This document shows, one piece after another, positions 3,181-40,700 of a stretch of DNA of 62,663 bases. The notes under the pieces were generated by a model. That model worked only from the letters and a program-made list of their open reading frames with translations. It had not been told where the DNA came from and ran no database searches. Position 1 is the stretch's first letter. The number at the start of each line of letters is the position of its first letter. This stretch comes from Perkinsus olseni (Eukaryota), in the NCBI GenBank assembly GCA_013115125.1, contig JABANN010000143.1, positions 1-62,663 of the forward strand, given 5' to 3'. The position numbers and the translations under genes were made by a program.

Positions 3181-4239
3181 GTACCATTGATGGCTATCTT
3201 AGTAAATTATCATGACCTTGAGTTGTTGTTTCCATAGTAGCCCGGCTAAACTATGATGGTTCCTCGTCCCGTGTGTGTGAGTTTAGAGTCCAACCCTTAC
3301 GGTTCCGGCTTAGTCAGACTCGAAGCCGATGCGCTCAGTTGGAGACTTTCTGTAGCATTGACGTGCAGTGCAATCAGACACATTGTCAAGAAGCTTTACT
3401 CAGGAGTACATTTAACCAGAGAAGCTTCCTTTCCACCCGGCAGGATCCACATCTGGTAGAGGTCTCTCGGGTTCAATGGTCATCCTGATAACATCACTCT
3501 AATGAGAAGTGTTCTGTGTGTGTGAGTTCAAAGTCGGGTGAAGCAAGGAAGCGCGTGCGACAGGGTGGCAAAAGCAACAGGAAAAAGCCTGAACTGCGGG
3601 TGAAGGCAGGAACGGGAAGCCCTAAACCCCTCCCGAAACCCGACAGGGCAACCCGATCCCGGAACTGTTACCCAGGGCAACCAGAAACCCGAACTTTTGA
3701 CGTGGGCAGAATCCCCGAAAGTGCTTCCTTGTTTCTGTACCTTTCCCTTGGACTTTGGGAATTACCCGTTCAAAGTCCAATACCGACAGTACGGCATAGT
3801 TAGACTAGCATCACCGATGCACCTTTTTGAGGGGGATTAGTTCGGCCTGTTGAATAAGCCCTGTTCATGAAGCCGAGGAATGCTGCTTATAAAGGTAAGT
3901 TCTCATCATTAGTTGGGGCACGCCCTTTCCTCCCAGCAGACGCCGCTTCCACAGATATTATTGTGTCATCAGGGACCCATAAGTCGGCATCGGACTTGGG
4001 TTGCGATTGGTGTGGTATTGGTGGGGTTACGCAGATGAGCAGGACATTCCGTGTGATGGTAGTTCAGCCTGTAAACATAAGAGAGGATTTGTTGTCATCG
4101 CGTCACTCTTAATGTGGGAGATCCCGAAATCGGATTTCCACCCGAGTTCGATCCCGGCACGCGACGTTTTTCCGTAATCATTACACTTGGTAACACAGCT
4201 CATCCCCGTAGATAATCTTTGACTTTGCTTTTCTTAAAA

Positions 4240-5880
4240 ATGGAAATCGCCGAAGACAATTCATCACCGGACCTCGATCGTAACGGCTCCTGCTGGGCTA
4301 CTGCAAAAGTAATACTACGACCAATAATAATCTCCGATAATGGTATCTTTAGGTTGACCCTGCCGCACACGAAAGAAAAGATATTCGCATCATTTTTGGA
4401 TATGGCTCCATTATGTGGAGACCCGCCCTCGACTACGTAAGCTGTTCCTGAGTACATCGAAGCTCTTTGTCCACTTTCACGTAGAGCCCAGGGACGGTAA
4501 ATAAGTCCGAAACCTTTGCCCGGTTCGCAATGGACCCTGAATCACTTAGTGACCGAAGTCTCCCATGCAGGGTTTGGACGAGAAAACTATCTGCGACTTA
4601 GGTTTCGTTTCGATCCTTACCGGATCTAACTCGCTTTAAGGACGATTATGGACCGCTCAGGAGAGACACCCGGTCAAAATTCATTTCAGGAAGGAGTTCA
4701 TCCTCGTTAATTCACATTGTCAATTTTTGTTCGATCGTGCTAGATTGAGTGGTGCTGGAGAAAGTGGAAGGTGTTTCTCGTGAACTCGGTCGTATAACTG
4801 GCGATCGATGTCTATGCTTTTTCTCCTATTTTACGGTTCCCTCATCTCAGACCTCGTCATTTCCGGCCAGAGTTAAGGGATACGTCCGGAGATTCTGGCA
4901 GTCCAGCGTGGACCACCGAGGAACCGTCGACTATCCTGGCAGGTCTGTATATTTACTTAGTCGTCTTAGTTGTAGTTTTACTCTATCTTCTGCAGTTTTC
5001 TGATGAATTTTACTGAAAAAATTGATTTTTTTCCTTTTTTCCGTATTTTGTTGTCCTTGTGTGTCTTCATTTTACATCTTTTTTTCCAGAGTTGCCACAC
5101 TTTTACGCTGCAAGGATCTGCCGCATACCAGTTCGCGAGATCGTGCTGAGGGGGAGCGGGAAGGCGTGTGGGGGATGGCCTATGTTCTCAAGGATGATGG
5201 TTTTGATGATACGATGAGAGTAATAGGGGCTCTTTGAGGGAAGGGAAAGTGGCTGTTGTACTAGATAAAGGGATTGGGGGGTCTCTACTAAGGTGAAGAA
5301 TTAATTGGTGGAGTTTAGGTAGGGCGTGAGTCGTCGATGAAATTACAATTATTAATGAGGTCCACTGTTATTACAGCGTTGAGTAGTTGTAGTATTATCG
5401 AGAGGCCTCATAAATTTTGTTTGGGCTGTAGACGAGTATCATTTTCACGATATAAAGTAACTTATCTGGGGCTGCGTGTGATCATCACCTCTCATCAGAT
5501 GCTGGACATCCGTGAAAAAAACGGATACACGAGGACTGTTGCGACCCTCTACGATGCCGACGACAAGGCCATTGGTAGTAGCAGCGACTACCACACTTTT
5601 CCTAAATCATGATCTCAGGGGAGGCTTTCCTGTATTACGGCTCGATCGACATTTCTGAGAACCCTATGTATACGGGACCGGAAGATGTGAAGACGATTGC
5701 TAAGCGCGTTAATCGGGCGGTTGGACCGAGTGGAGCTAATGCGGATTATGTAATAAGTGAGGGGAGGGAGGGGGGCTGAGGTGGTTGTGGCAGGTGTGTC
5801 GTTTGTGGCGGTGCTTGCAAACGTTGGGAGTACGGGACGATCATGTACAGTCGATATACGACGCGATAAAGACCGCGTGA
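4240..5880 (+). CDS. CHAC: ChaC-family glutathione-specific gamma-glutamylcyclotransferase, 7 exons (4240-4308, 4353-4436, 4851-4942, 5090-5219, 5499-5574, 5619-5749, 5794-5880)
   Basis: Spliced translation gives [53 protein letters not shown] and AVGPSGANADY, all ChaC hallmarks. Confidence 0.92.
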
Positions 5881-6355
5881 TCCAGGTTCGATCCTAGCAC
5901 CCTCTGTTTTTACAGCATTTCTGTCCAGAATTATTTCTCATAGTAGTTTCTGCTCGCTTGGAGGTTGTTTGGTTGCGGCTTGATCTGGTTTTTCTCGATT
6001 TCTATTTTTGGCGATCGTGAGCGCCCTACTTTTCGCTTTGCCTGGGTGTTGGCGATATTTTTCCGTAAAATCGCGTGTCCTTATTTCTAACCCGATGTAT
6101 TTTTCTGAGGATCTAATCCGAGCATTCCACCGTCGATTTTTTAGGGTTTCTTCTCACCCCTTCCTCACCATCTGATAGTGGGCACTTGTTTCTTCCTTTG
6201 TGTGCCTTGGTGCTTATCAGAGCCGAGAATTCGATTCCGGAAACTCTTTTGGGTTTCTCGGATCATTAGTTTTGTAAACTGTCGTACCATAATTTCCTCT
6301 ACATATCTATGATGAATTGATAGGGCTTTGTTCTGTCCCTTTAGTATTTTTGTTC

Positions 6356-9110
6356 ATGTCATCATCATCTTATGATCTGGGCATAGGGATCGATCCGCCA
6401 TCGGCCGCGGGAGGGTATCTTGCGGACGATGAGAGTATCTTAGATGACGACCTCAGCTTCCTGCAGATAGGTAATAATAAAGATTCCTGTGAAACGGGCG
6501 TATCTTTCTTTTCAGCTGTGACCAGGATGGACTCAACATTATGTGAGGAGATGACGAGTGCCTGTCGACGGGCAGCTGTAGTGTTGTTCATCATTCTGCT
6601 GCTTTCATGGGCGTGGTAGTAGTGGGAAGCGGGGGGAATGTGGTATGTCCCTGGTGGAATTATTCGCATAGTTCTCGCTGTTCAAGGCAAATACTGCTGT
6701 TTTTGATCTATCAGTGGCTTTACGCGGGCCTGCGAGTTTACGCGCTCAGGGGTGGTTACAACAAGTGTTTTTCGGGCAAAATTTGGTATGCCCTGCTGGA
6801 TTATTTCACGCAGGGCTTTGAGCTGTTCACGACAACGACACTTGCAATCTTGCCATAGAAGACGAGTTGCGCAGAGTTGCCAGACTTACTTTGAGACTAG
6901 TATTTTGCCGGCAGCGTTGACGGCTAGCGGTCGAGCCAACGAGCGCGGGGCCAGGGCTCGTTCAATCAGTTGCAGATCGATGGATGGTCGTCCGGCGTCC
7001 TGTGGATTTACGTCCTGAGCGATGTCAACGCTGCTGGTGTCGCTTAATGTTAGTTTGCATCCTTTGGTGGTTTGTTTTTTCATGTCGAAGATTTATTATT
7101 TTAGCATACACAGGTACTCGAAATCGATCAGGGAATATTACGGGAAGTACGTGACGCCAAATTATGAGCCTTCGCCGCCGGCGCCGGCGGAGCGAGGGGA
7201 GGACGAAGACGATTCCGATACGACCATCACCCCACGAGGGTGATAGAAGAGTATCTTTTACCAGTGTTGGTGCTTGGGTTGAGTAGGTCGACCTAGGGGG
7301 AATCTTTTAGTTTATTTTTCACATGGTTGATTATGGTTGCCGAGACTAAGGCAGCCACTACACAGGAGCCTTTGCGCTCGGTGGTGCCAACGATGACGTT
7401 GCCGTCGATAAGTTTATTATCATCATCCCTACCTAAGGATTGTAATAAAGGGGATTACCGGGTCGGGGTGGTAGAATCTGAGGTTGAAGCTGGCGCATCG
7501 CAGAGAGCATGATTCTTTTCGTAGGTCGTTCTGTACAGTAGTGCATTTTTTATGGAAAGCTATCACTCGTTAGGGTCGAACCCGGATCGTCGTCATGTTA
7601 AGGTAACGCGATCCTCACGAGAGTGTTGGTGGACACGGTCGATCGGGGTTTGTTGAAACCGTCTGCGGAGACCTGGCGGGACCGGCGGGGGATGCGACCG
7701 CTGATGGCGGCAAAAATCTCTGTAATATCGGGGAGCCGATTTTCCTGGATTTTCCCCGTTCTTGGGTTCTTTGTGAACGCCTTGCTAGCTTTTTGCAGAG
7801 GTATTTTTCTGCGGATTTTTACGGGTTCTGAATTTAAAATTAGAAAGGTTCCGTGGAGAGGGGGACCTAGACCGCTGAGCTCTTGTCTGTCGTCTCGATC
7901 GTTCAACACGCGCGCACACCTCGTCACATCTCGCAAGTGGTTATGAAATTGATTTGACGTATTGTGGTATGTGTCTTCAATTTACTGAATTTATTTTTAC
8001 TGGTTATCGTGTCAGGTAGTTCCGGATTCGGAGGTTGCCATACCTCACAATTGGAGCGTCCCGGTGTCCTTGGAGGATGATTTTGAGAAGGTAATTTTAT
8101 TTCCGGGTGAATTCTGTTGCAGATATTATCGTAGATACTGATCGGTGGAGGAGGGGGAGAATCTGTAGTAAGGGTTGGTTGAAATCTTCGCAGTGTGGAG
8201 ATATCTTAGGTTGATCACGGTGATTGGCAGATTATATGATTTTTCTTTGGGAAAACCGCTGAAATTATTGGTGAGGGATTTATGCTGCAATTGTAGCAGT
8301 AACCGATAATTCAGATTTTTCTCGGATCCGCGATGGGAAAAATACGGTGGAAAAACGTCCAGCGTCTGGCAGGCGAAAAAATCCGATGTGTTTTTTACCC
8401 ACGTTGTTAAGGCGCGAACGGCACTCCAGGCATTGCTGTTGAACTCCCTTGGATTGATGGAAGGTCGCTTTTAGGCGGTTGAAAGTCAGCCGAGCTCGTC
8501 GAGGTCCATTAAGGAGAATAATGATGGTGGTAAACTGAAGCCTTCGGGGGCGAGGTAGGAGGGGAGCATGGGTCGACCTAAAGATTCATGGCAAGGGTCG
8601 ACCTAAGGATTCCTGGCAAGGGTCGACCTAAAGATTCATGGCAAGCATTAACTTAGGATATTCGATGATGATGTTGAAGTTAATAATTCCGATAAGGGCA
8701 CTGATACCGCCGCGGATGGCGATGGTGTCGTTTTTAGGAGGTCGGGAGCGAGGTACACCTGGAGGAGGGGGAGTATCTTTGAGATTGCGCACAGCAAAGA
8801 TTTTGTTGTGTCAGGATTTTTGATGGCCGCGAGAGTGAAGGTGTTGTTGATGTTGACGCTGAGGGATGGAGCGGCTCTGAGCATTTGAAGAAGTCGATTG
8901 AGAGGTAGTAGTGATGGGGGAAGGAAGAGTTGGTGGAGGAGTGGTATTATCGGAAGGGGTTTATATTTCTATGAGTAGATAGAAATCCCGTCTTTCCGAC
9001 CTCTTTGATGGTTTGTGGGGGAATGTCTGAATTTGCAGGGAACACTGCCAGAGGCCTAAGGTCTTGGGTGGCGAAATATTTTGTTCTTGGAAGAATGCTG
9101 TGATGATAAT
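6356..9110 (+). CDS. Multi-exon hypothetical protein; may be the 5' part of the FAM13-like gene downstream; boundaries approximate
   Basis: Series of short open exons bounded by AG/GT, e.g. VVPDSEVAIPHNWSVPVSLEDDFEK, AVESQPSS...SGAR and IFDDDVEVNN...SGAR. No domain recognised. Confidence 0.4.
8570..8644. repeat. Intronic tandem repeat, 3 x 25 bp (GGGTCGACCTAAAGATTCATGGCAA)
   Basis: Three near-identical units read directly; the reverse complement contains the dispersed ATCTT(T)AGGTCGACC motif. Confidence 0.95.
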
Positions 9111-9433
9111 GATGCCAAAGGACGTCGAATTTGACCAGCGGATGGGGGTCGTCTATCGATTAGCCTTCGTCGTGTTTCTTCCAGGAGTGTCCGTAGCATC
9201 CCATCTGCTGAACATTATTATGCATACCTTGCGACTACAATTCTGTTCGTTAATCGAACCTTCAATTGGACGTAATTAATAAATTACGATCAGCAGATTT
9301 TGGTATTTGTCGTTTATCTTTGTTATAGTCTGCGTAATGGTTGGTACCTGATTTGCCCGTCAGACTCTCGCTCCCACCTGAGGGGGTGTCTAGTGGATGG
9401 TCAGCTCAAATTACCCGACTGACAGGGTCGCAG

Positions 9434-10336
9434 TTGATGCATGAGAAACGGAGGGTGAAGCAGGAGTTGAAGGTAGGCTGTGATTTGGGCGTTTTATGGT
9501 ATTAATTCTTGTCGTCAGTCGCACGATGTTGCATTTACAGCGGTTCATGGACGACCACCGGGAAGGGCGGACAAGGAGCCAATGCGGCCACTGTGAGTGA
9601 AGGGGAGATATTTTTATGCTACTTTCACAGCTACAACCGATATTGGCTGAGTTACGATTGGTATGGTAGGTACACGTATTACCGTGGCCTGAAGCAAGCA
9701 ATTGAGGAGTCCGAGGCGACCGCTGTAACGAATGGTGATCGATCTCGGGTGGCGACGAATCAGGGAAGGAGTGGTACGGGGCATCAGCCGGAGGAGGAGC
9801 CCTCGACCACAACAGTGTCGTCCAATAGGATGATGATGAGGCTGCAGTCTCTGTAGTATATAGGGAGGAGTTGGCGTATCCGAGGTCGATCATGGGCTCG
9901 CGCGGGAAAAAAGATTCTTCCATAGTGTTGGATGAAGCACGACATTGACGGTACCGAAAGATTCTTACTCAACTTTTTACTCTGAGGGCGAGTTTGGTGG
10001 TGGTGGTGGCGATGAAATTTGACGAGTACTTTCGCTGTTTTCGGTCGATTGGAACGATTCAGGATCGACGAGAAGTCGCGGATACGGGAGGGGTTGCAGC
10101 AGTATCAGGCGCGGTTCTTCGTTGAGAATCAGCGGAAGATAAAGTACCATAAGGACATCGTCCCGATAGAGCGGGAGTATCGGGAGTAAGGCTGCACATC
10201 GAGAGGTCGGGGGTTCGATCCCCGGTGAGTGCGTTTTTGTAGGTATAAACAGGTGAAGGAGGAGATAGCGCAGTTGGAGCGCAAGTTGGGGATTGGCAAC
10301 TCGACCAGGGATCATCATCACCATCATGAGGACTGA
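9434..10336 (+). CDS. 3' exons of a protein with FAM13A-like C-terminal helical repeats (5' end not resolved)
   Basis: Spliced: LMHEKRRVKQELK-SHDVAFTAVHGRPPGRADKEPMRPL-YTYYRGLKQAIEE, and a second repeat EKSRIREGLQQYQARFFVENQRKIKYHKDIVPIEREYRE-YKQVKEEI; stop at 10334-10336. Confidence 0.6.
10186..10242 (+). other. 57-nt intron consisting of a tRNA-3'-half-like/B-box unit
   Basis: GTAAGGCTGCACATCGAGAGGTCGGGGGTTCGATCCCCGGTGAGTGCGTTTTTGTAG; its removal restores EYRE-YKQ. Confidence 0.8.
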
Positions 10337-10654
10337 TGGACCCCATCCTCAGAAGGAGGGCAGCATTCGCAGTCGAGTGCCTCCCGTTTATAATTTCGTA
10401 TATATAAAAGTCATTTTTCTGGATTGTGTTGAGGGGGAGGAGAGGTATCCGTTTCTTCGCTCATCCAGCTTAGATTGCTCGGGAGCGTCCGGAATGGAAG
10501 ATGGACGATGACAATTGTAGTAGTGGCGTGGCAGCGTCTCCCTCTGTGCTGAGGAGGCGGGCGAGGATACAGTATGCTGTATAAAGGCAGCTTCGGTTTG
10601 CTTGTTGTGGTTGGGGAAGTTTTTTGATTATCAGAGTTGAGCCACGTTCCCGTA

Positions 10655-13600
10655 ATGGCAGCTCAAGTGATGAGGACGCCTGCTGCAGCACCGCCGTCTA
10701 TGGTGACGAGTGGGAAGCTAGAAGTGTCAGAAAGGACCTCAGGACCATCAGTCGATCTGTCGGCGTGTGTTGACGTTGAGATGGAGGAAGAGTTGCGGAG
10801 GAGCCCGGGGTCGATGCGCCTTTGGTGGTACTACATACAGGCCACGACTAAGCGGATGGAGATGAGGCAGAACGCGGATCTGAAGGTGGGAGAGTTGGGG
10901 AAGGTGTGGTATGGGAGCTGTGTATTGGTCAGGATGCGTTTATGGAGTTCCTTTGTCAACTTCATGAGAGAGCACTGAGGGAACTGCCGAGGTGTTACAA
11001 GATCTGGCACAACTATCTCAAACTGAGAGTAAGGGGAAATTTGGTATGCAATTATCCGTATCTTTCTACTCGACGCTTACCCCTTCCGGTCCTGCTAGTA
11101 TTAGATGGCGGTTTCTCATATCGCTTTTTTAGTACCACTCCTTCTGCAACTCCCGAGCCGTTCGAAAGTTCCATCATCATCTCCCTCTGTAGGAGTCCTG
11201 GGTGGCGGACTTGTGCGTGACGGACCCAGCCTGTGACGTGGTGGAGGCCTGCTACGCCCGAGCTGTCTGCATGCTGGGCAAGATGCCTCGGATATGGGAG
11301 GAGTATATTGAGCATCTCACAAGGAGGTTGAAGATCACTGCGACCCGACACGTGAGAGCGTCTACGGGTGTGCCTTGCCGTTATTGGCTTTGGTCAGGTC
11401 ATCTACGAGGCCTTGAGGAGCCTTCCGATCACACAGCACTATCGTGTTTGGGCGTTGGTAAGTTACGTTTGGTGTGGTATTGGTTATGGTGGGGTGTCAG
11501 GCTATGAAGTTGATCAGAGAGCTCAACGTGCCGGTTAGAACGGGTGGTGAGCTGTTCAGGAGTTACCTCATGTTGGAGCCAGCGCATGCGGAGACGTACG
11601 TGGCGTATCTCGAGGAAGAGGAGCAGTGGGATGAGGCTGCGAGGTTGCTGGTGAGTAAATAGCCTAGTGGTGGAGCGCGCGGTTGCTTATAGAGAGGTCG
11701 TCGGATCGAATCCACGTGACCGTATTTTAGATGAAATTGGTTAACGACCCCGACTTCGTGTCCATGGAAGGGAAGTCCAACCATCAGCTTTGGCTTGAAC
11801 TCTGCGATATGGTCACTACACACGGTAAGCTACCAACTACCACACCTCTCCCGACTCTTGGGCTTCTAGTAATGAATATATTTCCGAGCACACAGTAGCA
11901 TTTAGTAAAGACGGTCCATCTATTTCTGGGCTCTCCACGGGCTAGCATATGTGTGGACGATTATGTGATTATTATGCGCATGATGGAGATGTTGGCCCAC
12001 TCTCATCAGTATTACTCCCTCAGGCCCTTTCATTAAGTCCGTGGACGTGGACGCAGTGGTGCGATCGGCGATAGGGAAGTTCTCGGACCAAACGGGTCGT
12101 CTGTGGAACAGTCTGGCCGACTACTACGTGCAGCTAGGCAACTTCGGCAAAGTAGGGCGATCGGATTTTTAATGGTCATGCATCGCTTCGCTCCGCCTAA
12201 TTTTCAGGCGCGTGACGTTTATGAAGAGGCCCTAGAGAGTATATCGACAGTGCGTGATTTCTCGTTGGTCTTTGAGGCTTACCAGAAGTTCCTCGAGAAT
12301 CTTGTAACCGTTTACAGCGAGATGGAGGAGGAGAACGAGGAAGGAAAGGACACGGCGGGCTCCACGGCTGACCTTCTAGTGGAGGTAAACCCGCACAGGT
12401 TCGATCCCCGCACCCGGCATTTTTCCTTCCAGGTTCTTGCCAAGCTCATAGATCGTCGATTGGACCTTCAGTCTCAAGTGAAGCTCCGGCAGAACCCCAA
12501 CAAGGTCTCCGAATGGATCTCTCGCGCTAAGCTCTTCAAGGACGACCCTCTCGCTGTTATAAGTAAAAAGATTTCTAGAAAATGCCACCTGTGGGGATCG
12601 AACCCGGGTGGAGATTAACATCATTTCCATTGTCAGTGCAATCAATGGTTCCGATTCGTCATACGTCGATAAGATCACAAGAAAATTCCAGCTAATTTTT
12701 GCTGTTTTTTTCAGAGACTTTTGCCGAGGGTGTGAAGACTGTTGACCCGTACCAAGCAGATGGGAAGCTGAGCAGACTGTGGATTGAATTTGCCAAGTAA
12801 GAATCTGGAAGGGTCGAACTGAGGCCGGTGCTGGTCTAGGGTCGTATTATGATGAGGAGAGGTTTTGATGTATCTGAGGTGTCGCACAATCGATCACCGG
12901 GGCGAGCGTGTTTTTCACGGCTTCTCGTACTGTGCATTGATGAGCTGGTATTTTCCTCTTTTTCTATCAGTTATTACATTAATACTGGTAAGGACATCGC
13001 CAATGCCCGAGCGGTGTACGAGAAGGCTGTCAAAGTCGAGTTCCGCAACGCCGAGGAGTTGGCGTCGGTGTGGTGCGCCTGGATCGAGATGGAGATCCAA
13101 CAGAAGAACAACAAACAGGTGGGGAGGAATGATGAGGAGAGGCGATGATGGTTGTCTTTTAGGCACTGGAAATTTCGCGGCGCGCGGTCGGGCAGTACAA
13201 GGGAGCGGAGGCTGGTACGGTGCAAGCCCAGTTGTCGAGGAGCGTCCGACTGTGGCATTTGGCGGCGGATTGCGAGAGATTTATTGCGAAAAATTTGGTA
13301 TGAACGACAGCTCAAAGATGAATTATCTTATTCATTCTGCGCAGGACACGACCAGAGCGGTGTACGATAAGATGATCGACTTGAAGGTGGCCACCCCACA
13401 GACCTGTAGGCCGGGAAACCGCCATCCCGATCGCCATCAGCACCCTCCCTTCGGCAGGCATCGATTATGCACAGTTCGAGGAAGACAACAAGTACTTTGA
13501 GAAGTCCTTCCAGGTCTACGAGAGGGCCGTTAGCTTATTCAGATGGCCGCACGCGAAGGATATCTGGGTACGCCAGACCTGCTCATGGACGATGTGATTT

Positions 13601-25324: not shown

Positions 25325-27570
25325 AGATTATATGACGAAGCGCCTTGAAGGGGATAATCTACGGCACTTCTACGTCGATGCTGGACAGGCTAAATTTGGA
25401 AATCGGATTTTCGAGCGGACGAGACGGGCTGGGGCGCGTATGGCCTTCTCGAGGACAGTGGTATTCAACGCCGTTGTCTGTCCTCGAGAAGTGGCCTTCT
25501 GATTGCTACGCTGGATTAATGACGCAGCCAGTCATTACAGCGCGCCGCAAGTTGAAGGATTCCGACGGAAGCATGGGCCATGAGAGCGACCACTCCGGAA
25601 ATTTTCACACTTTCAGAAAACAGCGTTGCCGTGTATCGTTTAGGCCGTGCATAGGAAAATCACGGTGGGCCGACTTGGGAGTGGTTCGGTACCGCGCGAA
25701 CCAAAATAAGACGGTCGACCGCCGGCTGTAGAGGTGGGAACGGTTAGGAGGAACGGACTAATTTCCGAGTCCGGTCCGGGCTCGATTGAAACGTTCCTTA
25801 ATAACGAGCAATACATGAATTAGTCATCACGTCTTCCTGCTCTAAGGCTTCGACCGACTTCATCTGCATCTTCCTCCATCCCCGCGGTCACCATCCCGGT
25901 CGGCAGTCCGGGCATGGGTGATCGATGCAGGGCGATGCAGGGCGATGCAGGGTATTGAGTGCAATCGTAGAATTCACTGCGATTCTATGGCTGAACGAAT
26001 ATCGGTGCAGCACCGATATTCGTTCAGCCATAGAATCGCACCGACGGTGGTCTCATGCCGGACCAGCCGGACTGCCCCTTTCACATCCAGTGTCCACCCC
26101 TAGGACGCTGGGACCGGCCTAGTTAAACTAACCATGTGATCAATTCGTGTGGTCTTCAAGCACACATATGTGATATCGCCGGTAAGCCTACTTTGATCCG
26201 ATGATGAGGCTGAGGAACTTAGAGGGAAATCGATGTGAAGAGAATAGCGCAGAGAATAGACGCTGGACGGCAGAGCTCGGGTGTTATCATAACAACGTCA
26301 TCATATTCCACTTATTGTTAATTGTTGGCGATAAAGCTGTCAGCGTTCTTGCAATCAACTCGAGATCACAGATTAATCCACCCACTTGAAATCAGCAGAC
26401 GTCCTTCGTGCTCACCTTCGATGCCTGAGAGCCCACTCGGAGCGGGCCACTCCCTCAGCCTCCTCCTCACTAGCAGACAACTCTGCCACAGCAGAGATTC
26501 AGAGGTCGTCTCATACGACGCTTTCAACTTCCACCATCTGTGTGTGGATCAAGTCTCGAGTCGGCGAGATGACTTGCACGCTCAACACCACGCCGCTGTT
26601 ACCTGAGGCACCGGGGCATGGCGGGCGATGGCCTTGCCTGACTGTCTTCGTAGCCACGCGCCCTCTCTCAACTTTAAAATCAACCTGTAACGATACGCAG
26701 CGTGAGACAGAAATGTTGTGCATGCGTGCAAAATAACCGCCATACCAAATCTTTCCCAAATCGTGACTATTTTCGCCGCATCTTCTACGTTCGTCAACTA
26801 CAGTTGTTTACGACGCTCATGTCTATCAAGGTCATCGACACTCAGGGCCTCTGGCCGAAGATACGTAACCATGGGGAGACCTTCGTGATGGCCACTTCTC
26901 AGGCGCTTGTTATTTTGATGAAAATGATTAACATTGTGAACGAAATTTCCTGTTGACCCGATATGCTTACGTAGAATGGGGAATCCAAGAGTATTATAGT
27001 GAATACAACACAAACGTAACGATGTCTTTTCATATCGGGAAAGAGAACTTGGTGTAACGATCCCATTGTCGTTTGTCTTGTGCCGCCGCCGCCGCAATGA
27101 TGCTGATTGTTGGGAACTCTTCTCAAGGACGCGAGAACATGATGACCATGCGTTGATTACTACGCCCCTCCACAAGTTATTAGCATATCCATTTTTACAC
27201 CGTCTACTGTCATCCGGCGGCTCGGGGATGTATTTTTTCATTCATCGCTGAGACACAAGTCTCCGAGAGTCAGGATGAGGAGCTTTCGGCAAGACGCTCG
27301 TCTCGTCGATGATGCGAATCAGCAGAAGGGGGTCTCAGATTGAAACTGTCCTTAATAACGAGCAATACATGCCTTTATTGCTCTAAGAGTTGAAGGGTGT
27401 CCATACCCGTGATTATTAACTCATTCTCCTCATTACTAATTTATCATCGTCCATCAATCGTGGTGGAATCTTTGACCTCTAGATGAGGCGTCGATCCATC
27501 GGACTGGTCGCAAAGTTAAGAAGTCGTTGAGGAGTGTATAAACCAGAGTCGGAGAAATCATTTATCAATT

Positions 27571-29851
27571 ATGAATTTATGGCCGCATATCGATCGTGGC
27601 GGTATCTTTGACCTCCATCTCAGGCGTTGATGTCTCGGAGGTATCCGAGTACGTGAGTGGAGCTGGTGATGATGAACCCAAGGGTGGCGTTAATATTACT
27701 CGAGAAAAGCTGCTTCAAGAGGCCGATGCCTTTAAGGTAGGGATCTTTAGAAATCTTCCGCCTGCGCGTCGCCTCGGTAGATGTTCAGAATTCCTCACCG
27801 TTTTTGAGGTAGAAAGAAAATGATGGAAAAACTGGGAATCTTGAGGTTGAGCCTTGCGTGTCGCATATCGGGCTGCCTCGAAAAGATACGTTTGAGAAAT
27901 TCCCCGATTTTAATTTACTGTCATTCTCCTCAAAGATTCCCTTGCCCTGTCTCAGCGTAGCGTCGTGAAGTTTGGCTGCTTCTGTGCTCAACTACAGTCC
28001 GATGACGAGCTGACTTCGATTCTTCTACCGGCCGGTCGAGAGCTGGCCAACACGTTCGGAGTTCTTTGCACTTGCATGACGGCAGTCGCTTTAAAGGGTA
28101 GTAATGGCGGGAGATGCTAAAAGGTCTTGTAAAATTGGCGTGACAGCCAGTGGTGAGCTTTGGGCTGAGAGACGTGGCGGTCGTAGTAGGTATATGAAGG
28201 TGTAAGATAGTCTGATATCATCTTTAGGAGAGCGCCTCGCACCCTTGTTGTTGTCTCAGCGTTCTGTGTTAATTTATGCTACTTTCACGTTGACAATAGG
28301 ATTGTAAGAAGGCCTCTTGTCTGTGATGCAAATCTCACTATTGGTCGATTTCCTGGGTTTGACTCAAGGGAAAGGAACCTAGAAGTGGATGACGTACTTC
28401 TCCACCCATCCGCGACCCTCAGTAACAAACAGGAAGGGAATGCAACATGTAAAAAGTTGCATGTTAGTTAGTAACCAGGTTACTAATAGTAACCGTGTAA
28501 TAGGTTGCGAAGTTAGGCCACTTCTCCCTTGAGGCGAAGTAGTCGATTTTAAGCAGCCTCTATCTTTGTCGTTACAGAGTGAGTAACGTTACTGCTGTTA
28601 CGTAGTCTAGTAGCCTATGACCTTGGTCCCGTTTTCAGGAGGGAAGTGTTTGACAGCGGAAGTAGCGGCCCTGGGAGATGATATTAACAAACAGGTGGAC
28701 AACCTCAACATGGCAGCTCTCGCAAACAGGGCTTCTGTCAGCCGGATCTGTAGTGTCCACGGGTCGACCTAAGATATTCTGCCATTTATCTTCATGCGAC
28801 TAATCCATTACTACGCGAAAATTCAATCTGCCGCTACCTGGGTTATCGCTGGACGCGAGAATTCCGGCGGTGCTCCCACCTCTCTCCGGTGAAAATGGGT
28901 GACAGATTTTTACAGCGGAGCGTACTACGCTCAGCGTAGCTGGTTCAGAGATTGACTTTTTCTCGGAATTAGTGTGGCGCGCGAGAATCTCTTTCAGGTG
29001 GTGCGTTGCTGGAGAGAATTCAGCGGGTCAAAAAGATGTCCTTGGAGCCTTCGAGTGCTTGTCGGAAGATTGTGATAAGGAATATCAAGTGTATGCAAGA
29101 TGCGCAAGATGAGCTAGGATCCTCGCTCGAAAGGGTTAAAGAGGGGAAGAAAACGGAAGGGGGTAGTACTTGGGTGATGGGGTCGGAAAGGGAACAAATA
29201 TCTTTCATTTTCCTTTCGCTTAGAACTTTATAATACAGTGTCGTGTGAGCCTGCGGTGTATTATAATAGTAAGGAATGTGCAGAGTGTGAAAATATAATT
29301 TCGATTGTCATGTAGAGAATTGAAATTACTATTGAAATAGAACTGTTACACTCACGGGGAACAAGCAAAGGAATTGAATTTTTTTTCTGGAATACAGATC
29401 TTATGGATACTATATTATTGAGAACCATTCTGTATACTATTCCAAGTGGCTTTCTATAATACAAAAAGTCATTTTTACGTTCAGAATTTTTAAGCATTTT
29501 CGCTGGTTCTCAGAGGTGCCTGAATTAGTAGACGATGAAGATGACGTGTTGGACTTTGATGGTGATGATGATTTATTTCTCGTCGAGAGCGCAGAGGAGT
29601 TGATAGGAGCGATCGAGGGGTTGGTTGGAGATATGAAAAGATTGGCAGTTTCGGCGGCCGATGATATCTTAGCGGAGCGAAGCAGAAAAGTATCTTCGAA
29701 AATTGACGAAATTGTGGTAGCAATTACGACGGGAAGCGACGACGAAGAGGAATTTGATGATTTGTTTGATGCGTTGGAAAGGGAAGGGTGTGGTGAAAGG
29801 ATGGGGAAAGTGAGGGAGATTGTCCGGAGAGAGATGATATCCAAAGCTTGA
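27571..29851 (+). CDS. Probable GCIP/CCNDBP1 (cyclin-D1-binding protein)-like protein, spliced; 5' end uncertain
   Basis: Helical exons GALLERIQRVKKM...NIKCMQDAQDELGSSLE, an acidic tract DDEDDVLDFDGDDD, then KVSSKIDEIVVAI; this matches the GCIP family layout from recall. Confidence 0.5.
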
Positions 29852-30431
29852 GCGTGCAAGATACGAAATAGGTTGGGTTGGGTGTGTATAGTTAACGATG
29901 TTCCTTACTCTTACGAAACGTTTCTACTGTGCTATGAAGGCGTTGTGTGTGAATACTGAGCGGCTGGAGAGGCTCACAATTCCGATGATGCTCACTTACG
30001 GTTTTTTAGAAGTTTGGGAGAAATTCGGAATTCAGTGATCTCCACGGTAAATATTTTCGTGTGAAAGTCGAAATTTTCGTGAATTTTTTGTCATTTTTGG
30101 ATGCATTCTTAGTATTATCCGCTCCGGTTCGATGAGAGCGTTGACACTTTTGTAAGGTATCCGAAAGTTCCCGCATGGTCCGAACTCTTTTTTTTATCAT
30201 ACCGAATTTCCACGAAATGAGAATTACTGATAGATCGACAATATTGTCATCTACGAGACCCTCGTTAGCTTGCGTCGTGCAAATTTGACAAGTCCGTTTT
30301 TTCCGAATAATTTTTCCGTTTTTTCCAGACTAAAATGGCCTGTATACTTGTTTCGTGTGGTACTTTTTTTTCGGTAAATTTCGGGACGCTGTGATTTTCC
30401 TTTGCGTACTTTCAGGATTGTTTTCCTTCTG

Positions 30432-30794
30432 ATGGCAACCGCATTTGCCTCATCCACGCCGACGAACCTTTGCACGCATGCGCACGACGATCTTGAACCG
30501 ATTGAAGTTGTCAGGAAGGTGTTTGTGTATTTTGGAGACCGACCGGTGCCGGTGGAGCTGCAGACGATGGCAGAGGGAGCGGATGTTTTCGCGGAAAAAT
30601 TTGGGAAAAGTTGTGCGGAAAATAACGGGAAATTTCTGAGAGAATTCATGGTCTTCGCGGGAGCTGGTCGACGGACTTTTCACGGCTTGGTTAATGGAGT
30701 ATTCATATTTGTGAGGTGGTGTGCCGACTTGGGAGTTGATGTTGAGCTCGATGCGGTGGAGATTATAAAAAGTAGTAGCAGGGAGGAGGGGTGA
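30432..30794 (+). CDS. Short hypothetical ORF (~120 aa)
   Basis: ATG-initiated ORF with protein-like composition and base composition similar to the neighbouring TBC ORF. Confidence 0.3.
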   Translation: MATAFASSTPTNLCTHAHDDLEPIEVVRKVFVYFGDRPVPVELQTMAEGADVFAEKFGKSCAENNGKFLREFMVFAGAGRRTFHGLVNGVFIFVRWCADLGVDVELDAVEIIKSSSREEG

Positions 30795-31189
30795 AAAACA
30801 GTTTTTTGTGGGTGTCACGGCGCTCGGCGATTCGGTTCTACTCAGGGTTTTTAGAGCATTGCCTTCGAATTCTCGAGTTTTTCATACTTCCCTGTTGTGA
30901 TAACAGATCTTGGATATAAATTTTTCGGCTGCCAAGTGAGAAGGGCATTTCGTTAAATATCGGAATGGAACTTTGGAGTTCCACTATTTCCAATATTCGA
31001 CATTCAGGGTCATGTCGTGTTTGCGCCTCACCTTTGGAATTGATGGAAGTTTTTCTCGCTGGGGTTTTTAGTCTCCGTGAGAAGTTTTTCGACACTGGTG
31101 GAAGGGCGACGGTGACGATTCTGATAGAAAAATCAGAAGTCCCAAGTAATCACAGAAAATTGTTTTCTCCATATGACAGCAGTTCTCGG

Positions 31190-32530
31190 ATGAAAAATCC
31201 ATTCGTAGTGGCAACTGGTGTGTTGGTGATGATGATGATCTGTCATGAATCTGACTATCGGACGAGCTTCGAAAATCATCTCTGTGATGCGGGGTTCTCA
31301 GATACGTACCCTGAGAAGCTCCTACGGGCTTTCGATCGTCTTCTAAAGATTCTCCCCGACGTTCCGAGTGAAGCCAGCGCGTTGCACATTCGAGGTTGCC
31401 CGTGTTTAGAGTGCCGATGGGGTAGTATCTTGGATCATTATATTACAACTAATTCCGCCATCCCGACTCCGGTCGTTCAACGGCTGGTGAGGAAGGGTGT
31501 TCCGCGGTCGGTGAGGGAAGGAGTTTGGTTTTGGCTGTTTGGAGGGAGCGCTGTGGCTCGCGATAGGAATCCTGGGTACTGCAGTTTGCTGGGGGTCGAT
31601 GGCGACTACGCCGAGCTGATCGATTTGGACGTATCTCGGACTTTTTGCGGTGAAAAAGAGTGGCAGAAAAAAGGCGGAGCGAAGATTTTGGGCAGAATTT
31701 TACGAGCGTATTCGCTGAGGAACCCTATGGTTGGGTATTGCCAGGGTTTGAGCTACATAGGAGCGCTGCTACTGGAGGTCTGTTCGGAAGAGGTTGCGTT
31801 TTGCTGTCTATGTGCTTTGGTTGAAGATGGGTCGATGCCGCCAGATTATTATACTAGTTTGAAGGGAGCAATCGTTGATCGATTGGTTTTGGAGGAGCTG
31901 GCGAAGCAGAACGTGAAGGGGTTGTGTGGCGCGTTGGAAGAGGAGGGAAGAAGTTTCGACGAATTTTCGTTTTTGGCGGTATCTTGGTTTCTGTGTTTGT
32001 TCACGGCGACCTTACCTGTGGAAGTCTCGGTTCGAGTTTGGGATTTTTACATGACTTACGGAATTTGCGTGATTTTTCGAGTATCTTTGGGAATCTTGAC
32101 GGTCGCTCAAGGTCCGATAGTTGAAGGTGCGGAAGATATTAATGATTTGCGAGATCTGATAGAAAAATCGTTAAACGAAATTGGAGTCTGTGACGTGCCT
32201 GACTACTGCATGTCGTTTAATAAAGTTACTAATACGGTGGTGGAGACGCTGAGGGAGAGCAAGAGAAGACGGATGAGTCGGGAGGAAGAAATTGATAGAA
32301 AAATGGGGAAAAAGGAAGACGCCTTGGACCGGTGCTTTCTAGCTGTTATTGATCGTCCGGAGGAGTCCCCAGAGAAGAAGGTTAATGAAAATTATTTCCA
32401 AGTTGATCGTGAGAGAACGTCGTCGTCGTCGGCTGCGTCTGGTGGAAGGAGGGACGCGCGGCTGTTGGGGGAGTTGGAGGATTTTATGATGTTTAAGAAG
32501 CCTCATCACCATCGAAGGCGAAGGAAGTGA
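31190..32530 (+). CDS. TBC-domain Rab GTPase-activating protein, intronless (start may be a nearby downstream ATG)
   Basis: LVRKGVPRSVREGVW, IDLDVSRTF (arginine finger), VGYCQGLSYI (glutamine finger), SWFLCLF and RVWD. Confidence 0.95.
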   Translation: MKNPFVVATGVLVMMMICHESDYRTSFENHLCDAGFSDTYPEKLLRAFDRLLKILPDVPSEASALHIRGCPCLECRWGSILDHYITTNSAIPTPVVQRLVRKGVPRSVREGVWFWLFGGSAVARDRNPGYCSLLGVDGDYAELIDLDVSRTFCGEKEWQKKGGAKILGRILRAYSLRNPMVGYCQGLSYIGALLLEVCSEEVAFCCLCALVEDGSMPPDYYTSLKGAIVDRLVLEELAKQNVKGLCGALEEEGRSFDEFSFLAVSWFLCLFTATLPVEVSVRVWDFYMTYGICVIFRVSLGILTVAQGPIVEGAEDINDLRDLIEKSLNEIGVCDVPDYCMSFNKVTNTVVETLRESKRRRMSREEEIDRKMGKKEDALDRCFLAVIDRPEESPEKKVNENYFQVDRERTSSSSAASGGRRDARLLGELEDFMMFKKPHHHRRRRK

Positions 32531-32918
32531 GGTGTTACTCGACTTGACCTATTCCGTATCTTGCCAGGGTGACCTCAGGATACTCTGTGGTCATACTGCT
32601 GTATATATTCGTATAATATGATATTCTTGTTATACTTTTCGTAATGATACGCGTAGTTGCGTTGAAAGTGCGGAAATGGGGGCGAAAGTTGGGCGATTTG
32701 TGGTATGGATTTTTGGACGTTTTCAGATTTGTCCCATCGGTATTGAAGGTAACGTACGACTTTTAGTGCTATCTCGAGTAAGCGTATCTTTCCATCATCA
32801 ACTTTAGCGATCCGGGTCGACTTTCTCGTTGGCTTCCCCGTCCGCGAGTTGTGGGATTTTAGTGGCACTCTTTGACTTCCCTTCCCCTTCCTAGTGCGTC
32901 TGCTGGCGGTGGCTGTGG

Positions 32919-36202
<3,284 letters not shown>

Positions 36203-37738
36203 CGATAATGATGATACCACTACAAGTGCAATATTGATCAACTTTCTAAATCACCGGTGTTGTGTTCATGCGTGCAGATTTTTGATACCAACTTTTCCGC
36301 AACTTTCAGATGCGTCTCCTTCTCTCTGCTGCACTGGTATGGCGTGGTTTTGCGGAGGTGAATCCTGTCGTCCAACAGGTTGACATTGGCGAGGCTCTCC
36401 CTGATAAGCTCTGTCTCGAAGCGGGTGAGGGGTGAAGCAGTGGTGTCGGCCTCGTTATCGTACCACACGGAAACGGTCACAGTTTTTGGACTGTTCTTTT
36501 GTTCATGTCATTGCAGCGGTCAGCATGTAGGCTAAAAACAGATTGAAACCCTCCTTAGCGGAATTAACTTTTAAGACTACTATATCAATTGGGATACTCA
36601 TGATAAATTGCGGAGCGAGCGGAGCATATACTGTCACTTCCGCGCTTTTTTGTGCGTTCGTTCGTTCGTTCGTTCGTTCAAATTATTTCTCCGCGACTAT
36701 GTCGATTCAACTCGCGAGATACATACCATTCGAAAGCTCGCGGTTTGTGTATTCTATGAAAAATACGAAATCGCTATCATCCCTGTTCTACCGAGCAAAA
36801 CCGCCGTGGACCGTTGTAGATGAACCCGAAAAAATACGGAAAAAACCCCGGGCTGGGGTTCGAACCCGAGACTTTGTGCCGAGCTCCGCTTTTTTCGTTG
36901 CGAAGGCCTAGTGACTATTTACTGACTATAATAACTTGGTTTGTGAGGACGCCTAAGCACTTTCCGGTCTACAAGGGCGTGAGAGTAGGTGCGGTGGGCA
37001 GCACCGAATTGTTTGCAGCATTCGGCTTGCAATGGTATCGAACCAATGCGTGATAGTTGTGGGATATGCTACCGACAGATGCGACCCTCAAGCAGCTCGT
37101 TCGGCCGATAGCCTATCTTCTTCTTGTGGATGCGGTCCGGCCAATTTACGGCCAACACACCTGTGAATAGCGGCGCTTCTGCGACTCAACAACACTCTCC
37201 GCTCAGTGAAGTTCCGTTTCGCCGCCGCAAACATATGGGGACTTCCTTGAATTCAGTCGTTCTCAGCATAGTGTATGGGTGTCGTCTATAGTACCAACTT
37301 TCCTCTTCAGCAACCACGTCCAATGGCAACTTCTATGAGACTGAGAAGGCCCCGTCAGTGGTGGTTGGCGAGGGGTTGTATAAGGAACTCGTCACCAGAG
37401 CGCGTGTGAGGCTGGATTTGGGGACCGGGGGCCTCGGGAACATCTATTATCATCAAAATTACAGCAGCGGTGATCTAGTCCAAACTCGAGCTCGGTACTC
37501 ATCTCCCTGTAGAGGATGTGGTCATAGAACGCATCATAAGAAGATTGGGCTCATAGTGAAGGAGATAGAGTGATGAGTAGTCGACAGAATTGGGGTTGAT
37601 GACGGGTCGCTAGTATGAAGGGGGTAGTGGACACACAGTTCAATTGTGTCATGCAGACAGTGCACAGCACTGCTCGGAAGAGAATCAAGAGTCTTTCTTT
37701 ATTTTTTGTGCGATCGAGACAGGCGTCGTCTTTGGTAG

Positions 37739-40700
37739 TCCTCAGCGGAGGCACAGCACGACAGGGTTATACAACAGCTGCATGCCGAGTTGACCGATCA
37801 TGGGAAAAGTGTGGGGGAAGCGGGCGGAGCGAAGCACGGAAATTCGAAAGAGGGAAAGGCTAAACAAGTTGGAGAGGCTGAGAGAACCGAAGGACAGCAC
37901 TTTCCAATTCTGTGAGTTTGGCGGAATCTTGCAAACTTGCTACCTCTTGCATTTTCTCAACGAGAATTTGCTGATCGTCTGATGGTTGCTGTTCGATAAG
38001 ATTCATAATCATCGCGGTGAGCGGCGGAATCTTTCTCTGCTGGGTCTGTGCCAATTTGGTGAAGTTTCTCCCTCCAACAGTCGCCGTCTTCAAGCTGGGC
38101 ATGGTAAGATACTCCCAAATCGATCACGCGATCGATTATTATTCAGTTACTAGCTGTGCTAATTCATCACGTGCCGCTGCATCGGTGGGGTGTGCTCGGC
38201 GACAGCATCCAGACGTGAGGACTCGGTCTGTGGAATTTCGTGGCGAGTGACGCTTCAGATGGCTCACGGTGGATCCCCATCTCATGTGTTTTGTCTTCAT
38301 CCCCATGCTCATGTTCGGCGACGTCCTCGCCCTCGACGCCAATCTGGTCCGGGGCGGGTTGCTGCAGTAAGTGCCTCGACGCTCTTTCTGGCCAATACTC
38401 TCGGGGTCTTTCGAGAAGAGAAAAAGCGGCAGATGAAATATTAGGAGATTGGTCGAAATCATACTGAAAAACTTTCCGTCGATTTTTTCGCGTCAAAATT
38501 TTCTGATAACTTGGAAATTTTGAATGCTATTGTGATGACAGCGCGTTGTTGCTGAGGCTGATGTTATTATCGGTAGTGGGAAGAAATCTTCTTGAGCGGG
38601 TTCAGCACGGGTCATTTTGTGCTCTCGAGTTGCCCGTTGCACACCCATCCACAAAATCTTATCGTGCGGCGTAGAATACGATGATGGAACTTGAGTCTAA
38701 TACCTTAATGCATGTCCCACACCAAGGCTGCCAGCCCGCTGAAGTACAACAGCGCCTCGCCTTGTCAACGCCACACAATCTGAGAACGTCCTTCTACTTC
38801 GAATGGTGGCACAAGTCAATTTGGATTCCTGCCTTAGCTGCTGAGTTCATAGCTTTTTACTATCCAAGGGTCATACCACTCCGCGCCCGATTCGTAGGCA
38901 TCATGTGATTAATATCAAGATAGCACGCGCTATCTGAAAACGCGAAGCTGACCCGTTTTCCATTCCCTGCCTACGGCGAATTTTGAACTGAATCCCCACT
39001 CTCAGAGCCGCCCTGATGGCCACCCTGGGCTTCCTCATCTCGGCCTTCCTCTCCTCCCTACCAACACGGTGAGGTGGTGGACGCGCGTCGTGCTGGCTTG
39101 CCGCCGAAGGTTGTGGAGCAGGTTCCTGCCATCAACGCGTGATTGGCCGGTGGCTTTGAGCGTCTGCTTCGGGGCTGTGGTGTCGGGGACAGAACCGACT
39201 GCGGCTATCTGGATCCTCAGGGCTCTCGGATGTAGGCCAATTCCGGCTGGGAGCTCCTTTCTGCTTTTTTCGAACGATTAATTCCTGTAAGGGCAGCCAT
39301 AAGCGCTTTGCTTTTCATCGCCATCGCGGCGGATTACCTTCGCCGTTTGGGTTGCGGAGGCTTCGTGCTTGAGATGCTGTTGAACGATTTTGTACCTACA
39401 ATCTTTTTATAATGCTGGAGCGTCCCAATTTTGGCAGACTAGGAGCCATCGGTCGTTATCGATCGCGTCATCGATTAGTGTGTCCGGTCCATCACCGGTG
39501 TGTTGGTCTCAGCCACCCAGCGTTTGAAGACCTTGATGGAGACGGAGAGCCTGTTGGGCGATGGGATGCTCATCGTGCTATACTCGGTGGCCAAGACTGA
39601 GCTGGATGATCATGTCTCACCATACGGACCACGTAGGCCAAACGAGGGGAGATGAGTTTTGCCTATCGCGCGCGCCCTGCTGATCGATTTGATCCGTGGC
39701 TCTCCCTTCAGTCGATATTGCTGTGTATGTGGTCCGTGCTGTGATTGGATCGGCATCACTCGGTATGCTACTTGGTATACATGGACTAACTGCCTTGGCG
39801 CACATCAGCAACAGGTATCATTCAACCTGACGCTGCTGTTTACTTCAACACTATTCCCGTCAGCCACCCGCACGCCTTTAATCGCTATGAGCATTCTCTT
39901 CGTTCTACTATCGCAGCCGTCCGCTCAGTGAGCGTCACGCGCCACGAAATTATGGGATAGGTTCGGTCAGTATGACCTGACGCTACAGACCACCATAACG
40001 CTAGTTACGGCCTATGCTTCCTTCTTCATCGCGGAGGTCTACTTCGGGATGTCTGGGGTCATCACGACCTTCACAGCTGGCATGATACTCTCCTGGAGGT
40101 GAGCACGATGGAAATTACCGCGCGCCACGAAATTATTATCCTCAGGATGCGGCCGCTGTTAATAAGCAGCGAGGCTGTCGACTCGTTCTGGTCGGTGATG
40201 GAGTTCGTATCCAATGCGGTCGTCTTCTTCCTGGGTGGAGTCCTCTTCGGGGATGCCTGCTACCGTGCGCAGCCGATAGAATTCCTTTGGTGAGCAGCAT
40301 TGGCATGATGGCCCGTGGCGTGCGAGACAACTTGGGAAAATGACTCGGCGTTCGTCTTCCGAGAATACGATGAATTACGCGGAAACTTAACGCATCTTAG
40401 CTTGGCCCTGGCAGAGCGTAGCGAGGTTGATTAGAACTTCATAGCCCGTACCTTCGTCCTGTGACTCAGCACGATCGTGGAATTTTCAACAGGTTTGTTC
40501 CCTCTCTGGTTGCTCAGGTTGTTGGTGCTGTATCTTGCAACCATCGCTAGCCGAGCTATAATGGTCTTCACCTTATCCCCTCTGATAAATTCGATCGGCG
40601 AGAAGTAATTGCGCATTGCATGCTGACTGCGGGGGTAGAACCAGGGACCTCTCGGTCATTAGATACTCGTGGAAGGAGCTTACGCTATCAGCGTGGAGCG

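Follow-up and report, generated by a model that had tools for sequence, protein, structure and literature searches.

Short tRNA-like repeats in Perkinsus olseni genes: a candidate tRNA-derived family whose copies coincide with minimal introns

A 62,663-nucleotide stretch of Perkinsus olseni DNA (contig JABANN010000143.1 of GenBank assembly GCA_013115125.1; hereafter the window) carries, within 36.5 kb, 15 copies of a short unit laid out like the 3' part of a tRNA gene, from the variable loop through the T arm and the 3' strand of the acceptor stem to an oligo-T run, the terminator of RNA polymerase III (Pol III). The family, its geometry and its lack of RNA structure can be read directly from the copies. 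Eight sense copies, in at least five genes, make up nearly all of a short GT..AG intron. We take these units, with modest confidence, to be a short, tRNA-derived family resembling short interspersed nuclear elements (SINEs), represented mostly by 5'-shortened copies and behaving like introners (repeats that are themselves introns), because they are dispersed, include a few full-length members, are shortened from the 5' side towards a common terminator end, and keep the promoter boxes while the stems have been lost. An earlier note on this DNA had preferred a system of intronic binding sites for TFIIIC, the factor that recognizes the B box, and had named captured tRNA 3' fragments and split-tRNA halves as alternatives. 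The first of these alternatives now fits better, in view of the full-length copies, the staggered 5' ends, the sharing of the unit alone between loci and the coincidence with whole introns.

All 14 units listed in the earlier note were found at its positions and on its strands, with the tRNA 3'-part geometry and conserved B box that it had described. The exact B box GGTTCGANNCC occurs 12 times in the whole window against a mean of 0.57 and a maximum of 2 in 100 shuffled sequences. Ten of these matches belong to listed units, one arises because the palindromic site 36856/36857 is read again on its other strand, and the last (37034) has no other feature of the unit; the listed units at 4141, 5878, 7557 and 40620 each have one B-box mismatch. 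With at most one mismatch allowed, the window holds 35 matches (15.4 expected). The register is constant: the variable loop and TTCGAYY are five bases apart, and a further five and then seven bases lead to a purine (in 13 of 14) and a T-rich stretch, with 20 nt between T54 and the T-run in every listed unit. The variable-loop motif RGGTC is present in 8/14, and position 73 is directly followed by TTTT in nine, by TCTTT in two and by neither in three. A pattern written without the B box, RGGTC-N25-TYTT, finds nine sites in the window against 2.2 expected, six of them with an exact and one with a one-off B box, so the way in which the units were ascertained does not by itself account for the conserved B box.

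A position matrix trained on the 14 units gives each of these at least 27 bits, and no other site exceeds 8 bits, a level that 0.28 sites pass on average in the null. This matrix is strict: it missed a true fifteenth copy (11651-11730), and an nhmmer scan likewise returned only its training units, so the impression of a family with no decayed tail that both give is weak. The B-box mismatch classes 0, 1, 2 and 3 contain 10, 4, 5 (2.97 expected) and 29 (21 expected) sites; over all 15 copies the box is exact in ten and one-off in five. The earlier statement that units occupy both strands and lie mostly in introns is upheld, as is their absence from a paralog array further along, no unit having been found beyond 40.7 kb. 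Eleven of the 15 copies are in sense orientation, as judged from gene evidence or GC skew (not significantly different from half), the antisense ones being those at 7557, 12579, 34807 and 36841.

Despite this geometry, the units do not seem to be tRNA genes or parts of them. ARAGORN at default settings reports no tRNA gene in the window, and Rfam no tRNA match at gathering score or at E values up to 10. Relaxed ARAGORN runs give weak cloverleaves at thresholds of 85-90% (7561-7627 at 85%, with acceptor pairing not above chance, and 35421-35502 at 90%) and 53 calls at 80%; matches ending at two units were given no weight, as the program seeds on T loops. The T stem is fully paired only at 34807, as noted earlier, and the mean over 14 units, 3.1 of 5 pairs, is the value expected from the GG/CC of the B box plus chance. 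Its 5' strand is almost always CCNGG and its 3' strand CCCRC or CCGGC, and the two do not complement each other even when pooled; perhaps the source genes were stem-less to begin with. Shuffling positions 63-73 leaves folding energy unchanged (mean z -0.01, Fisher p 0.59, 15 units), no alternative hairpin is kept among the units, and sequence complementary to the acceptor 3' strand is no more frequent upstream than by chance (p 0.09-1.0, 15 units). The T-stem and folding tests thus bear out the earlier impression that no pairing is conserved. A functional tRNA gene or tRNA-like RNA was rejected on these grounds, there being no cloverleaf and neither the T nor the acceptor stem being paired.

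The same data bear on the proposal that the units are halves from split or permuted tRNA genes, with 5' counterparts that would lie elsewhere and be joined to them as RNA. The 3'-half geometry is indeed correct, discriminator and terminator included, but A boxes with at most one mismatch are no commoner in the window than chance predicts (20, with 19.69 expected) and one at the right spacing is missing from 14 of the 15 units, that is, from all 14 listed ones. Stems are unpaired, complements of the acceptor strand are no more frequent than expected, and units sit inside spliced introns of genes that RNA polymerase II (Pol II) transcribes. With no tRNA parts found in the window, this alternative from the earlier note was rejected, and we regard it as barely credible.

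What the units derive from is better seen in three longer copies. The fifteenth copy (11651-11730, + strand), found through a match to the B-box-free pattern at 11695-11728, begins with GTGAGT, has an exact A box TAGCCTAGTGG (11660-11670) 45 nt before T54, and continues with AGGTC, a one-off B box (11703-11713) and a final TTTT-AG. Its A box matches at 9/9 positions, a score reached by random places at a frequency of 0.0002; neither ARAGORN nor Rfam calls it, and it reads as a decayed full-length tRNA-like sequence. The units at 19277 and 36841 (both - strand) extend some 60-90 nt upstream into a common 5' part, sharing an 18-mer (36894-36911) exactly bar one R position (2 matches against 0.07 expected), and a GGAGC-rich stretch is common to these two and 11651-11730. 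The longer of them (19271-19387) has a 5' part with a small hairpin insert, followed by the unit, its 5' edge being approximate; the other (36838-36923), antisense to the + strand indicated by GC skew, starts with GTCAGTAAATAG and ends in T-runs. Two of the full-length copies begin GT[G/C]AGTAAATAG, and the start AGTAAATAGYC, preceded by GT, is exact only in the 36841 copy and at 11654-11664. The D-arm region is disrupted in the copies at 19277 and 36841. The earlier claim that the units have neither a 5' half nor an A box consequently stands, as to the A box, for the 14 listed units, and falls for 11651-11730, with its exact A box, and, as to the 5' half, for 19277 and 36841.

The family therefore has three full-length members of about 80-115 nt, and the other 12 copies are without the 5' part, with staggered 5' ends and the oligo-T as common 3' end. 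Some copies share heads (4141 and 12579) or tails (12385 and 35462; 4141 and 36841; 19277 and 35166), and 10186-10242 aligns in register with 11651-11730.

Introns were located with RNA contigs assembled from public runs, in which GT..AG joints appear on both strands; 15 of 68 joints were listed, and the counts given here apply to those, so that the lack of 10186, 12385 and 20335 among them is no evidence either way. Seven of the 15 introns are only 44-47 nt long, which fits the published sizes of Perkinsus introns, in the portion of that report available to us mostly below 100 bp and down to 39 bp (PMC3101222). One such intron is a unit: the joint 17111->17156 is present in RNA contigs of 3/3 RNA-type runs (X7, X8, X11) and removes exactly 17112-17155, with GT..AG borders on the - strand; within these 44 nt, which are plainly spliced out, the unit runs from the third base to 7 nt before the AG. 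For three more introns splicing is supported by RNA or homology. The first, of 48 nt in SYF1 (12385-12432, +), is made of the unit; a piece of an RNA contig ends at 12382, equal to 12384 given a repeated AG, and unspliced it would add a 16-residue insert absent from all SYF1 homologues compared. The second is the full-length copy at 11651-11730: in the SYF1 homologue P0109 the exons end at 11638 or later and resume by 11734, and these 80 nt are therefore an entire SYF1 intron. The third, a 52-nt intron made of the unit (20335-20386, -), is skipped by the P. olseni TatD protein model P0255, which aligns with 20725-20387 and resumes at 20334. TatD is a minus-strand gene at 18.9-20.7 kb and harbours both this unit and, on the gene's own strand, the full-length copy 19271-19387, which lies in a 379-nt intron (19154-19532) with its donor at 19532 from the P0255 alignment and its acceptor near 19154 from TatD homology.

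Four other intron calls come only from local reading of the sequence. The 57-nt GT..AG intron predicted at 10186-10242 (+), the last one of a gene ending near 10335, corresponds to a unit that extends as far back as the region of the anticodon loop; splicing keeps the reading frame, and without it a TAA would stand in frame at the donor. Three introns are predicted from GT, T-run, YAG and open flanks only: 35160-35237 (+, 78 nt), with unit 35168-35204 starting 8 nt after the GT; 35458-35526 (+, 69 nt), with unit 35474-35510 and a frame open throughout; and 40582-40666 (-, 85 nt), whose unit (40614-40650) has one B-box mismatch and no T-run. Gene strands at 33-41 kb rest on GC skew, because a Pfam search of the open reading frames (ORFs) there gave no match, and two ad hoc gene finders, which over-called or recovered 0-5 of 15 known introns, were not used for counts. 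Open, in-frame unit-introns such as 12385-12432 and 35458-35526 are easily mistaken for coding sequence in annotation.

Together, these eight sense introns (44-85 nt) align in register on the unit, the copy being nearly the whole intron. Their 5' ends form a staircase, with the GT at the tRNA 5' end, in the anticodon loop, in the anticodon stem, or in the variable loop or T stem, and in shortened copies the donor is not part of the conserved unit; the AG comes 4-36 nt beyond the T-run. A recurrent motif in such a position invites the explanation that the unit is a chance sequence or a B-box-like splicing signal such as a branch-site motif, all the more as the A of TTCGA stands 21-28 nt before the 3' splice site in six unit-introns. 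Nevertheless, 6 of the 7 RNA-supported introns of 44-47 nt (among the joints listed) are without the motif, copies are also antisense, in an untranslated region (UTR) and intergenic, one of them has an A box, and 12 exact B boxes against 0.57 expected are far from chance. We consider this explanation very improbable.

The remaining copies are not whole introns. The copy at 4137-4173 (+, 37.7 bits, one B-box mismatch) is cut at the T stem, keeping the T arm, acceptor 3' strand, G73 and TTTTT, and lies upstream of the first RNA-supported exon of ChaC, on that gene's strand. A second copy (5877-5912, +, one B-box mismatch) is part of the ChaC 3' UTR and unspliced, X11 contig record 1 running unbroken across 5794-5929; the earlier note had placed this unit directly after the ChaC stop, and it is indeed inside the ChaC mRNA contig. 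The copy at 7555-7590 (-) is antisense to, and by prediction probably intronic in, a + strand gene starting at 7309. That at 12576-12612 (-) is antisense in SYF1 intron 12563-12714, 14 nt from its 5' end (SYF1 homology puts the exon end at 12562 and the next exon start near 12711-12715), and that at 34804-34840 (-), with the only fully paired T stem, is antisense to the + strand indicated by GC skew, its context being predicted.

The family does not seem to be confined to these loci. One X11 contig matches only 4139-4173, with unlike sequence on both sides, and an X7 contig has the same left edge; X8 and X11 contigs match from 10202, the first base of the unit, after more than 250 unlike bases. 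We infer that such contigs come from other expressed loci carrying near-identical, sharp-edged units, only the 35-nt unit being in common. Chimeric assembly through a common 31-mer would carry the same implication, that near-identical units exist elsewhere.

A diverged lineage may also have a unit at an orthologous position. P0102, an ORF from an assembled public run, departs from the window at one residue in about 60 of a SYF1 exon, and its reading frame runs on through the intron that follows in the window. The peptide encoded there matches the other-frame translation of the window's units (motif VRS.H.AFF) and is codon-compatible with the B box in its exact form; ahead of that box, most positions are unlike those of the window intron. 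The unit thus seems, from this peptide, to sit in the orthologous SYF1 intron, with a 5' part that has been exchanged or changes fast. In the diverged DNA run X12 (record 8) the 12385 intron is ungapped, with 13 differences in 359 nt. A search of proteins for orthologous read-through ORFs gave one relative for SYF1 and, for TatD, only a spliced model.

The strong conservation of the B box calls for a comparison with the preferred explanation of the earlier note, according to which the units are functional DNA-level sites where TFIIIC binding would organise chromatin or modulate Pol II transcription, tRNA origin being secondary. Consistent with this, the B box is exact in 10/15 copies and one-off in the other five while neighbouring T-stem positions are unpaired; six of seven units found without using the B box have it exact; sites with 2-3 mismatches are scarce; both strands are occupied; and the relative's orthologous intron seems to retain the box beside a differing 5' flank. 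On the other hand, intron divergence of about 10-20% makes a 9-base core in one orthologous pair non-significant, and 5 mismatches in 135 B-box positions fit moderately young neutral copies of about the age of the split from the P0102 lineage. Moreover, the T-run and positions 72-73, which TFIIIC does not need, are also kept, and the tie to intron edges and to the sense strand (11/15) would be unexpected for a chromatin site. To our knowledge, 15 sites in 36 kb is also far denser than any known system of lone TFIIIC sites in yeasts, which counts against such a function. TFIIIC binding at the units is possible from the sequence of the intact B box, but the explanation as a whole appears rather improbable. 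A tRNA-derived family would account for dense intact B boxes in gene bodies whether they are used or not.

How a SINE-like family could come to coincide with introns can be pictured as follows. A full-length copy would open with the 5' end GT[G/C]AGTAAATAG and an A-box/D-arm region, followed by AGGTC from the variable loop and by the B box, which is the T loop; unpaired sequence would stand where a tRNA gene has the 3' strand of its acceptor stem, and the copy would close with the oligo-T Pol III terminator. It would spread by copying of Pol III-type transcripts or genes, most copies keeping the final 35-50 nt up to the oligo-T and being found only in non-coding parts of Pol II genes. In a sense copy, the oligo-T would act as the polypyrimidine tract, a YAG after it as the 3' splice site and a GT on or immediately ahead of the 5' edge as the donor, so that the copy alone would approach a minimal intron of the size preferred by the host (about 44-57 nt). 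Intact B boxes would be accounted for by the youth of the copies and by the promoter being what is conserved in the source genes.

Whether insertion created these introns is a separate question. It is possible, and we propose it tentatively, that a Pol III-type, tRNA-derived element acts as an introner, its insertions having created the introns rather than filled older ones, with GTGAGT as donor and the terminator oligo-T plus AG as acceptor; complete or shortened copies that landed in exons would thus be spliced out as minimal introns. Ordinary short introns here are 44-47 nt long, six of the seven RNA-supported ones listed having no unit, and a 35-nt unit in an intron of 44-52 nt therefore leaves no space for an older intron. 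The competing explanation, which we hold to be unlikely, is that units landed in older introns, or replaced their interior by gene conversion, and that trimming to minimal length followed, with no new introns arising. Two copies lie within larger introns (the antisense one in the 152-nt intron 12563-12714 and the sense one in the 379-nt intron 19154-19532), 10186-10242 resembles 11651-11730 minus the D-arm part, and the change of the 5' part of the P0102 SYF1 unit while its 3' part was kept is conversion-like. However, in five to eight introns of 44-85 nt trimming would have had to stop short of the unit every time and leave it complete, and shortened copies are also found where length is unconstrained (4141, 12579).

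Several observations weigh against the view that the units are a SINE-like, introner-like family. No target-site duplications are visible by eye at 11651-11730, 19271-19387 or 36838-36923 (they were not searched for formally), copies end in an oligo-T (T4-6) rather than in the A-rich or LINE-like tail of classical SINEs (LINE, long interspersed nuclear element), a good A box is present in only one of the three full-length copies, and the acceptor-side sequences are very diverse, with no single consensus. The copies 4141 and 12579 are shortened to an identical 5' edge, which would not be expected if truncation were simply random. T stems are unpaired despite near-perfect B boxes, which neither decay of young copies of real tRNAs nor simple chimeras explain, and copies with 2-3 B-box mismatches are few (about 2 above background), a steep fall that also fits selection on the B box. 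Of the eight whole-intron cases, 10186 depends on frame logic and three on prediction only. Loose contig ends could be assembly artefacts, and a metagenome scan for two subfamilies returned 0 loci.

As for its origin, the window is, by protein comparison, nuclear DNA of P. olseni or a very close relative, since the RabGAP ORF at 30920-32530 shares 86-94% identity with P. olseni proteins, compared with 70% for P. chesapeaki and 65% for P. marinus. At 7309 and 10633, 9-11 extra letters ending in CTTGGCTCA precede the matching part of RNA contigs; judging from these letters, which read like a spliced-leader tail, both places are spliced-leader trans-splice acceptors and starts of two + strand genes. 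The spliced-leader RNA intron was rejected as a source of the units, its start GTARATATCAGKTCC (taken from the primers in the part of PMC3101222 at hand) having 3 matches against 4.15 expected and none at a unit. In SYF1, contigs of three RNA runs match from 12888 on, after more than 250 unlike bases, a break that may reflect an alternative isoform or a diverged haplotype. A histone H2B ORF (16145-16504, -) coincides with very high RNA-contig depth (bin 15891-16461).

The window has other repeated features. A second dispersed motif, TATCTTAGGTTGA, occurs at 10 sites between 7475 and 36063 (1.18 expected), nine of them on the + strand and including 8202-8214, 13745-13757 and 35016-35028, and a related motif, ATCTTWAGGTYGA, occurs five times (0.35 expected). 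In TATCTTAGGTTGA the AG of a 3' splice site seems to run straight into a GT, and the RNA-supported intron 8165-8474 contains a copy 37 nt from its start; such sites may serve in recursive or alternative splicing. The RNA-supported intron 8555-8814 has the 25-nt sequence GGGTCGACCTAAAGATTCATGGCAA in three tandem copies (8566-8645), with a related copy at 28758-28784. Two candidate C/D-box small nucleolar RNAs, both on the + strand and both below Rfam gathering scores, resemble snoR35 (50839-50896, 27.6 bits, E 0.13) and Z40 (53138-53206, 23.4 bits, E 2.8). The ORF 58616-60034 (-) has a weak match to a MULE transposase (E 1.8e-4, below cut-off), and 15-nt tandem arrays are found at 58088-58306 and, within the span of that ORF, at 58999-59208. 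The paralog array that is free of units (46119-47303 and 48914-50084) is a tandem duplication with a spacing of about 2.79 kb and 71-88% identity.

Set beside known systems, the family shares most with tRNA-derived SINEs. Like these, its members are short, dispersed on both strands and divided into subfamilies, keep the B box while the cloverleaf stems are lost, and consist of many 5'-shortened copies with a common 3' end. They differ in a full length of only about 80-115 nt, in the oligo-T end, in the lack of target-site duplications by eye, in having a good A box in one copy only, and in coinciding with intron boundaries. Partial copies are also known from the tailless tRNA retropseudogenes of mammals, which have break points in loop regions and the CCA of the mature tRNA; here the oligo-T of the gene and unpaired stems are found instead of CCA. 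The yeast ETC (extra TFIIIC) sites and the TFIIIC-bound SINE B boxes of mammals are comparable in that a lone B box, with no usable A box, would lie in the neighbourhood of Pol II genes; unlike ETC sites, the units keep the variable loop, positions 72-73 and a terminator, are tied to introns and are much denser.

Within the genus itself, mobile DNA has already been linked to abundant tRNA genes. As far as the consulted part of the report goes, P. marinus has hundreds of copies of some tRNA genes, for instance 349 of tRNA-Leu, and its Dada DNA transposons, of 4.7-11 kb, insert in the A box of real tRNA genes (PMC3706591). The units have genus and tRNA connection in common with Dada but are 35-115 nt long, start downstream of the A box and lie in introns, so that Dada elements, of the wrong size and with the wrong insertion site by that description, were rejected as the source. 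A literature search over full article texts turned up no paper that connects Perkinsus introns with tRNA-like repeats, SINEs or TFIIIC (repeat tables may exist in supplements).

The coincidence with introns recalls the introner elements of Micromonas, Aureococcus, dinoflagellates and fungi, where one family likewise provides whole spliced introns in unrelated genes and the length of the element sets that of the intron; in the present family partial copies prevail, and the donor falls at varying positions of the element. Known introners are mostly DNA transposons or miniature inverted-repeat transposable elements with terminal repeats and target duplications, and in the sections accessible to us a 2024 review of transposon-derived introns does not use the word SINE, uses 'tRNA' six times in unrelated senses and describes no introner as tRNA- or Pol III-derived (PMC11282704). 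The origin of new spliceosomal introns is a long-standing question, and the clear cases so far are DNA-transposon introners. If the introns described here were indeed created by the units, a tRNA/Pol III-derived repeat serving as a minimal intron would be a second, mechanistically different source of introns, tying the promoter and terminator signals of Pol III to the splice signals of Pol II; a sizeable share of the organism's introns of about 45-80 nt would then descend from tRNA-gene copies, and with each copy a gene body would gain a B box that TFIIIC could potentially bind. The best explanation at present is a variant on SINEs and introners, namely a tRNA-derived repeat acting as, or filling, minimal introns.

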